Shown in pieces: positions 9,556 to 12,948 of a DNA stretch of 64,000 nucleotides. Numbering within the stretch: the first letter of the stretch is position 1; every line of letters starts with the position of its first letter. A program made the position numbers and the translations under genes. The notes under the pieces are model-generated. The model had not been told where the DNA came from and ran no database searches. It saw only the letters and a program-made list of their open reading frames with translations. The stretch is taken from assembly GCA_963707635.1 (NCBI GenBank), contig OY970173.1:2560001-2624000 (forward strand), read 5' to 3'. The DNA is from Candidatus Latescibacterota bacterium (GTDB lineage: Bacteria; Krumholzibacteriota; Krumholzibacteriia; WVZY01; JAKEHA01).

Positions 9556-12500
9556 CTACTGGATATTGTAGCGTTTGATCTTCGAAAGAAGATTGGGATA
9601 ACTGATGCCCAGGTGCACCGCCACCTGCGACTTGTTCCCCGAGTGGCGCCGCATCGCCTCCAGGATCATGGCCTGCTCGATCTGCTCGATGCGCTCGCGC
9701 AGCGTGGCCTCGCGCTCACTGGCGGTCTCCGCCTCGGCCTCGGCTCCACGCAGCACCTCCGGCGCCAGGTGGCGCACATCGAGCGACTCCCCGTCGTCGG
9801 CCAGGATGATCGCCCGCTTGATGACCTTCTCCAGCTCGCGCACGTTGCCCGGCCAGTGGTACTCGCGCAGCCTTGCCATGAACTCGGGCGTCGCGCTGTC
9901 GATCGACTTCTCCATTTCGCGGGCGATCTTGCCCAGATAGTGCTGCACCAGCAGCGGGATGTCTTCGGGCCGCTCGCGCAGCGGAGGCACGGTCAGCGGA
10001 AAATCATTGATGCGGTAGAAGAAGTCCTCGAGGAATTTCCCTTCGTCGACGAGCTTCAGCAGGTTCGCTTTCGACGCGCAGATCACGCGGACGTCGACGC
10101 TCATCAGGTCGTTCGATCCAACCTTGCGCACTCTCCCGGAGTCGAGGAACTGGAGCAGCTTGCCCTGCATCCCCATCGATGTCTTGCCGATCTCGTCCAG
10201 GAACACGGTCCCGCCGTTGGCTTCGATCAGCAGTCCGTCCTTGTCGAAATAGGCGTTGGTGAACGCACCGCGGACGTGGCCGAACAGCTCCGATTCCAGC
10301 AACTGTTCCGGCAACGCCGCGCAGTTGACGTGCACGAACGACTTATCCCGACGCTCCGAAAGCAGATGGACCGCGTAGGCAATGAGCCCCTTGCCGGTCC
10401 CGGTTTCGCCCTGCAGCAGCACGGTGGCGTCGGAGTGCGCCACCCGTTCCGCGAGGTTCAGCAGGTGAATCATCTCGCGGTTGTCGGTGACGATCGATTC
10501 AAAACCCTTGCCGGCGCCCGGGCGCGGGCGCGCCGCGCGGCCCTTCTGCTCCGACCGCAAGAGCTCGTAGACGGAAAGGGAAATGAGTCTCGAGTACGCG
10601 CCCACGAAATGGAGGTCTTCCTGGCCGAAGGGCGAGCGCGACGAATCGCCTTCCTTGAGGACGCACAACAGGCCCAGCGCCTCCTGGTCGAACCCGAGGT
10701 CCTGGAGCAACAGCGTCCCGTGGGGCGATGCGAGGCGTTCGCGCAGCTCCGCGAGCGACGGTTCGTGCTCCATGTCGGTCACGACGACGGGGCCGCGGCT
10801 TCCGGTGGAGTGCTTCTTATACCACGCTTCGAGCGCCTGGGCTTCGCGGGCGCCGATCCCCTCTCGCGCCATCGTCTGCAGCCCGCGGCCGCCGGGCGAC
10901 GGAATCGCGACGAAACCGCAGCTCGCGCCGAGCTTCTCCATGATGAGACGCAGCGTCGAGTCGAGCCCCTTGGCCAACTGCTCGCGCGATCGCGCCCCGC
11001 TCTGGATCTCGCCCAGGACGGAGAATTGGTCGAGCACCCGGCGCGTCGCGTTGGACATGTGCGCTTCCAGCCGCCGCCGCAGCGCGGCCAGCGCCTTGCG
11101 CACCTTCGCGCACTCTTCTTCGGCGGCGAGACGGTCGGCTTCGTAGACCGCGAGCAACGCGTCGTCGAGGTTGCCGAGTCTCCGCTCCACGCCACACAAC
11201 AGCACGTGTGAAACGATCTGCGCGTGGGTCTCATCGAGTTTCCCGAGCGCGATCACACCCTCGCCCAGCACCACCTTCGCCTTGAGGAGCGCGGATTCCG
11301 ACCGGTTCCGTCCGCACAACCGCGCGAACAACTGCCCCGTCATCGCCTTCTCGTACGGGTTGCCGTATTCCTCGAACGCCGCCATTGCCGCTTCCATGGC
11401 ATCGATCGCGGCCGCGGAATCGCCGAGCCGCGAGAGGCACAACGCCCGGGCGCGGTGGAAGAACCCGACCTCGTAGAGCTCGCCGCAGGCGGTCGCGATG
11501 CGAAGTCCCTCCGTCACCGATTCGAGCGCCGTCTCGGGCGACCCGAGCCGGTATTTCACGTCCGCCAGCCGCCGCAGGCACTCGGCCACGACGTCGCCAT
11601 CGGGCGCGAGCCGGCGCCCCTTCACGAGCGCGGCGGTGAGATTGGCCGAAGCGCCGCGCAGGTCGTTGCGCGCCATCATGAGTTCCCCGAGATATTCGTC
11701 GGCGAGCGCGGACTCGCGCTCGTAACCCAGCTCGTCGGCCATGGCCTGGGCGCGGAGCAGCGCCTTTTCGCCGCGACCGAGCGCGCCCCGCGCGACCTGG
11801 GTGCGGCCCAGCATCAGGAGCGCCCGCGTGAGGCTGGCCTGGTCGCCGAAGCGTTCGGCGCCGGATGCGGCCGAGTCGAACGCGCTGATCGCGTCCTCGA
11901 AGCGCCGCAGTTTCGAATAGACCACGCCCAGGTTGAGCTGGACGACGATGCAGTGTTGCGACAGTCCCAGCGTGCGCGCCAGTTCGAGCGACTTGGACAA
12001 CGAGGCCAGCGCCCGCGACCAGCGGCAGGCGTTCTTGTGCAGCAGACCGAGACTGTTATAGACGTAGGCGATGCCCACGCGATCCTCGGCGCGGCGGTAC
12101 GAGGACAGCGAATCCATGAAGAACTCTTCCGCCTCGGCGGCGAGGCCGAGACGCTGATAGCAGTTCGCGATCAGGAGCTGGATGTAGGCGACTTCGGCGT
12201 GCGATTCGGTGCGCTTGAGCTTGCGGTACGCCCCAAACGCGGTCTTGAGCGCGGCGTCATAGGCTCCCTGCCACAGGAGCAGGTACCCTTCCCGGTATTC
12301 GATCCGGCCCAGCGCCTCGCCGGTGACCGCGCCCGGGTTCGCGCGGGCCTGGTCGAGCACTTCTCTGGCCGCGGCGAAGTCGCCGCGCTTGCGATGGCAG
12401 TCACTCACGCGCAAGAGCAGGCGGAACCGATCCGGATAAACCGGCAGCTCCGCCTGCTCAAGCGCGCCGCGAAAATATTCCAGTGCCGTCGAGAAATTCT

Positions 12501-12612
12501 CGGTCGCGAAGTGCATCTCGCCGACTTCCTCGCCTGGCGAAGTGGTCGACTCACGCGCCTGTTCGCGCCGTTCTTTCCCCAGCCACTCTCTCTCGTCCCG
12601 TGCGTCGGACAT
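9556..12612 (-). CDS. Sigma-54-dependent enhancer-binding protein: N-terminal TPR array, GAF-like domain, AAA+, Fis-type HTH
   Basis: GETGTGKG Walker A, ESELFGH.RGAFTNA, FLDEIG, WPGNVRELE, GNKSQVAVHLGIS HTH; ~550 aa of TPR-like helical repeats. Confidence 0.92.
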   Translation of the reverse strand: MSDARDEREWLGKERREQARESTTSPGEEVGEMHFATENFSTALEYFRGALEQAELPVYPDRFRLLLRVSDCHRKRGDFAAAREVLDQARANPGAVTGEALGRIEYREGYLLLWQGAYDAALKTAFGAYRKLKRTESHAEVAYIQLLIANCYQRLGLAAEAEEFFMDSLSSYRRAEDRVGIAYVYNSLGLLHKNACRWSRALASLSKSLELARTLGLSQHCIVVQLNLGVVYSKLRRFEDAISAFDSAASGAERFGDQASLTRALLMLGRTQVARGALGRGEKALLRAQAMADELGYERESALADEYLGELMMARNDLRGASANLTAALVKGRRLAPDGDVVAECLRRLADVKYRLGSPETALESVTEGLRIATACGELYEVGFFHRARALCLSRLGDSAAAIDAMEAAMAAFEEYGNPYEKAMTGQLFARLCGRNRSESALLKAKVVLGEGVIALGKLDETHAQIVSHVLLCGVERRLGNLDDALLAVYEADRLAAEEECAKVRKALAALRRRLEAHMSNATRRVLDQFSVLGEIQSGARSREQLAKGLDSTLRLIMEKLGASCGFVAIPSPGGRGLQTMAREGIGAREAQALEAWYKKHSTGSRGPVVVTDMEHEPSLAELRERLASPHGTLLLQDLGFDQEALGLLCVLKEGDSSRSPFGQEDLHFVGAYSRLISLSVYELLRSEQKGRAARPRPGAGKGFESIVTDNREMIHLLNLAERVAHSDATVLLQGETGTGKGLIAYAVHLLSERRDKSFVHVNCAALPEQLLESELFGHVRGAFTNAYFDKDGLLIEANGGTVFLDEIGKTSMGMQGKLLQFLDSGRVRKVGSNDLMSVDVRVICASKANLLKLVDEGKFLEDFFYRINDFPLTVPPLRERPEDIPLLVQHYLGKIAREMEKSIDSATPEFMARLREYHWPGNVRELEKVIKRAIILADDGESLDVRHLAPEVLRGAEAEAETASEREATLRERIEQIEQAMILEAMRRHSGNKSQVAVHLGISYPNLLSKIKRYNIQ

Positions 12613-12672
12613 CGATTCCCTCGAGCTAGTGGACTATCGTGTTTCAGCAACGGATCGCCGGGCAGAGGCCGC

Positions 12673-12948
12673 CTAGCGCATCCAGATCATGTACTTCCAC
12701 CACATCCCCACGAGGATCATCACGCGGTCGACACGCTGACCCGGTGCCAGACGTTCTTCGACCGTCACCTTGCCACTGCCGCCGCTGCCCATTCCGGACA
12801 ACCCGTCCGCGTCCCCTTGGTTGGAGCCGCCACCGCGGCCGGTGCCAACGGGCGTGGGAGCTGCATAACAGGAAGAGACATCCGGAAAGAGGGCGGAAGG
12901 CGACACGAGTGCCGCGATCATGAGGAGGACTATCGCCGCCCGTTTCAT
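12673..12948 (-). CDS. Small secreted protein / candidate signalling propeptide (91 aa)
   Basis: Strong RBS (GAGGAAGGAGAAGG); signal peptide MKRAAIVLLMIAALVSPSA; Gly-rich core with NQGDADG; Trp-rich hydrophobic C-terminus. Confidence 0.75.
   Translation of the reverse strand: MKRAAIVLLMIAALVSPSALFPDVSSCYAAPTPVGTGRGGGSNQGDADGLSGMGSGGSGKVTVEERLAPGQRVDRVMILVGMWWKYMIWMR

Follow-up and report, generated by a model that had tools for sequence, protein, structure and literature searches.

Which signal is read by a sigma-54 activator that carries a long array of tetratricopeptide repeats (TPR) in place of a receiver domain, and what is the role of the small exported-type protein encoded directly in front of it? 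These questions are raised by a locus in a stretch of 64,000 nucleotides (nt) from Candidatus (Ca.) Krumholzibacteriia (contig OY970173.1, positions 2,560,001 to 2,624,000), which we call the window. On its minus strand an NtrC-type regulator is followed by an open reading frame (ORF) of 91 amino acids (aa), the 1018-aa activator, about 830 non-coding bases and a lipoprotein-like gene, and only 60 nt separate the small ORF from the activator ORF. Peptide signalling via intracellular TPR receptors is described, in the available text of two papers, for the Gram-positive Bacillota and their mobile elements (PMC10075063, PMC12700828). Here we report that the small ORF and the activator are paired far above chance, that the cassette is phylum-wide and that it is followed by a structured RNA of a new family. 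The coordinates are collected in Table 1.

Table 1. Features of the cassette and its surroundings in the window
Feature	Position	Strand	Basis or remark
Small protein, 91 aa: predicted Sec signal (about residues 1-29), Gly/Ser/Pro linker, core, amphipathic Trp-rich tail	12673..12948	-	ORF and homologs
Conserved core G45-D-A-D-G-L-S-G52, candidate signal peptide	12793..12816	-	alignment of 57 sequences
Enhancer-binding protein, 1018 aa: TPR solenoid 26-520, GAF fold 541-693, AAA+ 707-963, Fis helix-turn-helix	9556..12612	-	Pfam and AlphaFold
Predicted RNA target on activator mRNA, nt +8 to +17, ACGCACGGGA	12596..12605	-	complement of RNA 5' loop
Enhancer-like palindrome 1, TATAAA-N5-TTTATA type	9496..9512	-	matrix; 215 nt before P1
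Enhancer-like site 2, weak in the window copy	9418..9434	-	matrix; 137 nt before P1
Sigma-54 promoter P1, TGGCAC-N5-TTGC	9283..9297	-	pattern
Structured non-coding RNA, about 267 nt	9002..9268	-	folding z -5.9, covariation
Sigma-54 promoter P2, before the lipoprotein gene	8743..8757	-	pattern; no enhancer match
Lipoprotein-like gene, lipobox-like VAGC	7880..8725	-	syntenic downstream neighbour
Sigma-70-type promoter TTGACG-N18-TATATT, for the operon of small ORF and activator	13015..13044	-	pattern
NtrC-type receiver-AAA+-HTH regulator, upstream	13045..14616	-	Pfam; likely start near 14430

Linkage and distribution

The genome set comprises 70 loci (L040-L109, the window's own included), two of which have no upstream DNA and were left out. 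In 68 of the remaining 68 the small ORF stands upstream of the activator, 62 times by the strict pattern and six times by eye with variants of the core; a frameshift affects one copy, and contig ends truncate two. The metagenome set of 79 loci, less three without room for such a frame, gave a signal-type small ORF in 76 of 76 cases (71 distinct), with the strict core in 67 and with G-D variants seen by eye in nine. Both sets overlap and are kin, and hence they are not independent. The same detector was applied to 681 sampled long ORFs of the genome as a control and returned 80 signal-like ORFs, two of them with the core. One of these two is the window's own, which leaves a background of 1/680. 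No core-bearing ORF precedes any of the genome's 13 further sigma-54 activators, and a search of the own genome gave no second such small gene. This pairing lies well beyond chance.

The N-terminal 654 residues of the activator match 196 of the 201 genomes of the phylum Krumholzibacteriota (E <=1e-10), among them all 125 of high quality; fragments or paralogs may account for a few weak matches. The closest relatives have 56-80% identity and come from records named Ca. Krumholzibacteriia, Latescibacterota or uncultured bacterium, with one poor-quality record labelled Actinomycetota. Full-length homologs are further found at 24-30% identity, many of them without taxonomy. For the range outside the phylum, the ESM Atlas gives a lead in the form of three Eiseniibacteriota clusters (0.82-0.84).

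The association extends to paralogs. An alignment search of five genomes yielded loci of a shorter TPR-AAA subfamily, and all 15 have signal-type small ORFs of their own (11 by script, four by eye; the start is unclear in L123 and L128, which nearly duplicate each other). The cores of these small ORFs vary on a related theme, mostly G-[DE]-P, for example EGDPGDG, GEPGEDP and GEPGESP. At six TPR proteins in which no AAA domain was seen, there was no such small ORF. Since each paralogous TPR-AAA locus has its own small ORF, the precursor-receptor pair is the duplicating unit. A sequence-only reading of the window had proposed as its check that TPR activators consistently have an upstream signal-type ORF with a G-D core, and 68/68, 76/76 and 15/15 against 1/680 answer it positively.

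We note that the second subfamily (L117-L139; genomes G017, G019, G043, G054 and G179) consists of TPR-AAA activators of 780-980 aa with up to about five per genome, and that the activators of L121 and L127 have degenerate Walker/GAFTGA motifs. The genome of L007 contains a second near-full copy of the cassette (L014, L016) with 64-67% identity, its own small ORF and the core GDADGLGG; after L014 the sigma-54 site pattern has no match.

The small protein and its core

The small ORF is preceded by the ribosome-binding site GGAAGGAG and encodes a hydrophobic N-terminus starting with MKR, a Gly/Ser linker, the motif NQGDADGLSG and a Trp-rich tail. This bears out what had been read from the sequence about this frame, namely ribosome-binding site, signal-type N-terminus, linker, tail and the distance of 60 nt to the activator. 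It has no family match in Pfam or NCBIfam. A profile search recovered 61 homologs, the 24 inspected sequences have the same layout, and most homologs are somewhat longer (95-116 aa). By a simple rule of charge and hydropathy, a basic N-terminus and a hydrophobic stretch are present in 76 of 76 metagenome small ORFs.

Among 57 aligned sequences M1, G45 and D46 are invariant, D48 is kept in 89% and G52 in 96%, and the linkers are variable, mostly below 50%. The originally highlighted core NQGDADG is thus right in its GDAD part, but N43-Q44 lie outside as the conserved core starts at G45. Across the small ORFs the core follows the pattern G-D-x-D-x-x-x-G and is typed by clade: GDADGLSG, GDADDLAG, GDADDYANG, GDPDDIIEG, GDPGGAGDG and GDDDDYWDG. 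The core type tracks an activator tree made by a quick method, as is expected of kin.

A transmembrane anchor in the tail was considered and was rejected on hydropathy. The best 19-residue value is 0.64, a value of at least 1.6 is reached in only five of 57 sequences, and the tail is amphipathic instead. In most families (f1 to f9 denote clades) the amphipathic helix follows the core; in f5, f8 and f9 it precedes the core and the tail is hydrophilic. The alternative that the small protein is a membrane-tethered regulator has lost ground, since the tail does not form a transmembrane helix and f5, f8 and f9 lack it behind the core. Only the core is conserved and the helix shifts from one side to the other, so that the core behaves as a module and is probably the working part. 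It lies 31-56 residues from the stop codon.

The activator

Pfam finds TPR_12 (1e-27), Sigma54_activat (PF00158, 1e-59, residues 707-873), the lid (879-963) and HTH_8 (975-1015) in the activator and no receiver domain, which confirms TPR input in place of a receiver. The AlphaFold model has a mean pLDDT (predicted local distance difference test) of 86.7 with about 25 helices over residues 26-539, and residues 541-693 adopt a GAF-type fold. Pfam does not return GAF for the window copy; the assignment is based on the secondary structure of the AlphaFold model, GAF clusters in the ESM Atlas and the source names of homologs. No transmembrane segment is apparent in the protein (best hydropathy 1.3). 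With Walker A and B motifs and a GAFTGA-type loop in the AAA+ domain, a C-terminal helix-turn-helix (HTH), a -24/-12 promoter and upstream sites to which it would bind, the activator has the features of an enhancer-binding protein. The loop reads GAFTNA in the window; 67 homologs have GAFTGA (23), GSFTGA (29) or GAFTNA (15).

The top Foldseek matches are peptide-binding TPR solenoids (LGN, TSK and OGT). Residues H34, R64, R107, N186/N187, K193, N194, N227, K234, R299, E306, E344, R348 and E381 are kept at 70-100% and lie in alternate helices, which we assign to the groove from the helix register. The conserved Asn, Arg and Lys residues among them (R64, R107, N186/N187, K193, N227, K234, R348) would suit an acidic ligand.

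Two variations are worth mentioning. The GAFTNA loop (window 9994-10494, minus strand) marks the 15 copies of this genus, and elsewhere GAFTGA or GSFTGA is found. In f3 short activators occur (L083, L095): one of about 855 aa is seemingly without GAF and one frame ends after the TPR region.

A sigma-54 promoter and a structured RNA follow the activator

A strict sigma-54 site is present in 47 of 54 intergenic regions downstream of the activator against 2.2 expected, twice in 22 regions and once on the reverse strand; the 54 are 60 regions minus six that are truncated or mis-anchored (L002, L012, L013, L019, L070, L095). Upstream of P1, paired TATAAA-N5-TTTATA palindromes of variable score are found in the 47 loci where P1 was called, mostly spaced by 63-82 nt. 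Of 205 sigma-54-like sites in the genome, P1 has the best enhancer score with a matrix that included P1 itself. The second-best score (14.2) belongs to a sigma-54 site at G000:C1:313371 (minus strand), a possible further target. The genome has rpoN. Ahead of the cassette, a promoter similar to TTGAC-N16-19-TATATT lies within 130 nt upstream of 42 of 59 small ORFs, as counted by pattern with no shuffle control.

Directly after P1 comes the structured RNA. It has a 5' hairpin with the seed loop UCCCGUGCGU (9251-9260), a GGUGGGG loop (9046-9052) which is near phylum-wide, a long 3' domain and a closing terminator. Over 16 loci 20 of the 63 consensus pairs are compensatory, and the helix that closes the terminator is 99% paired with six doubly changed pairs. 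The GTGGGGT and GGCGAG loops are invariant in 20 f6/f7 loci. Rfam 15 gave no match over the RNA at E <=1 in the window and none at the gathering score in six other loci. The RNA is an undescribed, new family. Contigs of relatives from two RNA libraries (two studies) cover 8989-9256 and give a weak hint that it is expressed. A CsrA-sponge RNA was also considered and was rejected, as the conserved loops are GGUGGGG, GGCGAG and ACCGGC, not GGA.

In f5, f8 and some f2 loci (L072-L078, L017, L018) a GGAATGGCGAGATCC hairpin is found in the second half of the region between activator and lipoprotein gene, apart from the first RNA, and apparently it belongs to a second structured RNA. The GGCGAG loop in f6/f7 is part of the main RNA.

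Complementarity of the RNA to the activator start

In f1/f2 the 5' loop of the RNA, UCCCGUGC, is exactly complementary to nt +8 to +17 of the activator mRNA; all 13 loci have the two elements together, and 36 other loci have neither. Codons 4-5 of the activator are GCA-CGG in all 62 distinct f1/f2-type genes, with a background use of 8% and 23%, respectively. The other clades have different seeds. CTCGCC stands just before the ribosome-binding site in 20 loci (f6/f7 and one of f4), always with GGCGAG in the RNA region, CCCCAC precedes the ribosome-binding site in four of five f3 loci, and in all six f5/f9 loci the RNA starts with GGUAUCGGUU, which is complementary to the stretch spanning the start codon. 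As each clade counts as one evolutionary event, the seed complementarity amounts to about four events and not to dozens. A different complementary seed in each of four clade groups suggests negative feedback, as far as can be predicted from base pairing. CCCCAC, the complement of the GUGGGG loop of the RNA, also occurs ahead of the small ORF, within its 5' leader, in a number of f1/f2 genomes (L042, L044, L056, L057, L066, L090), not in the window.

Discussion

We suggest that the small protein and the TPR-GAF-AAA+ activator form a signal-receptor pair, to which we assign a probability of roughly one half. Small ORF and activator would be co-transcribed from the sigma-70 promoter. The small protein would be exported via Sec and its signal cleaved, and the core would be freed in the periplasm, where the amphipathic helix could hold the precursor at the membrane for a protease. 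The core could then be taken up by a family-5 (Opp/Dpp-type) transporter; the genome has six family-5 binding-protein matches, two of them beside permease-like motifs. Binding of the core in the TPR groove lined with Asn, Arg and Lys would relieve inhibition of the AAA+ ring, and the activator would switch on the adjacent sigma-54 RNA. By pairing with the translation start of the activator the RNA might limit activator synthesis, and it probably has other targets through its GGUGGGG loop. Going one step further, we tentatively propose a phylum-wide peptide communication in diderms that is independent of RRNPP: an exported and re-imported acidic peptide would gate a TPR-GAF AAA+ motor with a multi-seed feedback RNA as its single output, and the paralogous pairs would be separate channels.

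The cassette resembles an RRNPP pair on the input side and nla19-pxr on the output side and is a member of neither. According to the available parts of the sources, the RRNPP signature includes a receptor of 250-500 aa, a propeptide of 10-100 aa, Sec secretion, TPRs, adjacency and import of the mature peptide, which binds the TPRs (PMC10075063), and the core architecture of RRNPPA receptors consists of 5 or 9 TPRs and, optionally, an N-terminal HTH (PMC12700828). As in the RRNPP(A) systems of Bacillota that these sources describe (Rap-Phr, NprR-NprX, PlcR-PapR, AimR-AimP; PMC10075063, PMC12700828), a small precursor, here of predicted Sec type, with a short conserved core adjoins an intracellular TPR protein and paralogous pairs have different cores. 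The size of the propeptide (91 aa), the TPRs and the direct adjacency agree, whereas receptor length and TPR architecture do not: the activator has 1018 aa and about 12 TPR units, followed by GAF and a C-terminal AAA+/HTH sigma-54 output. Further differences are the diderm host, the additional amphipathic helix of the precursor and the length of many of its homologs, which is above 100 aa. With its 1018-aa receptor, AAA+ output and diderm host, the cassette is not an RRNPP member. In nla19-pxr of Myxococcus xanthus, as far as the accessible text goes, a sigma-54 activator gene likewise stands directly before a sigma-54 promoter and a stem-loop small RNA, but Nla19 is a response regulator without paired precursor and Pxr has 108 nt (PMC5568312).

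An enhancer-binding protein that drives a sigma-54 small RNA is also found in LuxO-Qrr (Vibrio) and GlrR-GlmY. The Qrr RNA of Vibrio feeds back on its activator gene luxO. LuxO and GlrR, in contrast, are receiver proteins that membrane kinases phosphorylate, and their signals are not known to be ribosomal peptides. The GAF-AAA+-HTH core is shared with NifA, FhlA and NorR (NCBIfam matches over AAA+-HTH are all below cut-off), but here a 500-residue TPR solenoid precedes the GAF fold and a small exported-type protein is always paired with it. Literature searches, whose coverage takes in few subscription journals, returned no published description of the cassette, and PMC13443453, in its available text, mentions the phylum only for CsrA. 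The cassette is thus apparently undescribed in print.

Several observations weigh against a signal-receptor pair with a feedback RNA. No RRNPP receptor is among the ten sequence matches or the Foldseek ranks listed, up to 50 of at least 500. The signal peptides were called by the simple rule given above, not by SignalP, and no transporter or protease gene was noted among the conserved neighbours checked. Kin signals diverge fast, unlike the main cassette, which is phylum-wide and at one syntenic place, and the core hardly varies inside a clade (of the 76 metagenome loci, 21 have GDADGLSG and 12 have GDADDYGN). As to the RNA, GGCGAG occurs without CTCGCC in 15 loci, and whole-duplex energies of its first 50 nt favour the cognate start only in f1/f2, f5 and f8; in f3, f6 and f7, where the seeds lie further 3', they are worse than coding controls. 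At 1958 crude gene starts genome-wide the seed targets are not enriched (CCCCAC 27 vs 27). Hfq was not found in the genome, which also sets the locus apart from LuxO-Qrr and GlrR-GlmY.

The main rival is an export or envelope monitor without any cell-to-cell signal. When Sec export or signal cleavage fails, the precursor would stay in the cytoplasm, and its core would bind the TPR domain and trigger the RNA. Such a monitor needs no re-import across two membranes, and the phylum-wide, syntenic cassette with its clade-constant core, the sigma-70-type promoter ahead of it and the tight feedback RNA would fit well. Yet there are several paralogous pairs in each of f5, f6 and f8 whose cores differ, which a single monitor does not need, and on balance we regard it as unlikely. 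The claim of a quorum-sensing-like cassette made in the sequence-only reading stands only in part. The conserved linked ORF, the G-D core and the Asn, Arg and Lys residues of the groove support it, but the near-constant core and the one syntenic place fit a housekeeping monitor equally.

The predicted topology places the core in the periplasm, and a partner there or at the membrane surface might read it, such as a kinase that serves the adjacent NtrC-type regulator, with the TPR activator sensing something else. The NtrC-type gene lies upstream of the cassette in 35 of 40 distant loci, and P2 is without the enhancer match of the activator. In the paralogs, though, the small gene stays with TPR activators at 15 loci where no NtrC-type gene was seen within the short upstream stretches covered, and the tail of the small protein is not a transmembrane helix. 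This makes a periplasmic reader rather improbable in our view, and the NtrC-type regulator is probably a syntenic neighbour and not part of the pair. The layout of export signal, variable linker and short motif in a co-transcribed upstream frame is also that of translational leaders of the SecM/VemP kind, for which monitoring substrates are described in the available text of PMC7897499; the small protein would then control translation of the activator by ribosome arrest. A core that far from the stop codon is not near the C-terminus, f5 shows no conservation of the tail, the gene that follows encodes an activator and not part of the protein-localisation machinery (sec/yidC), and among the sequences inspected there is no RAPP-like end. 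We therefore consider an arrest leader very improbable.

If the core is the ligand of the signal-receptor pair, the locus would represent a peptide-gated sigma-54 motor in a diderm phylum, with an RRNPP-like input joined to a LuxO/Qrr-like RNA output. Should the export monitor be true instead, the find would still be a regulatory circuit that nearly all members of an uncultured phylum share, with an RNA family not described before. The circuit is testable without culturing the host, and the paralogous pairs offer built-in specificity controls and possibly orthogonal peptide-inducible switches.

Neighbouring genes

Within the DNA covered, the lipoprotein gene is found downstream in 29 of 40 distant loci. 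As a direct target of the activator it was rejected: the enhancer score in the window is 1.8, and a score of at least 12 is reached in three of 33 loci. Because the terminator separates it from the RNA and it has its own sigma-54 promoter without enhancer match, the lipoprotein operon is probably not the direct output. Of the proposed chain from peptide and TPR activator through sigma-54 to small RNA and lipoprotein operon, the sigma-54 RNA downstream thus remains and the last link probably does not.

The window also encodes genes similar to those of the type IX secretion system (T9SS), which is consistent with a diderm host. Downstream of the lipoprotein operon (window 2253-6549, minus strand) an M6-type peptidase with FG-GAP repeats and a T9SS-type C-terminal domain is followed by a PorV-like gene.

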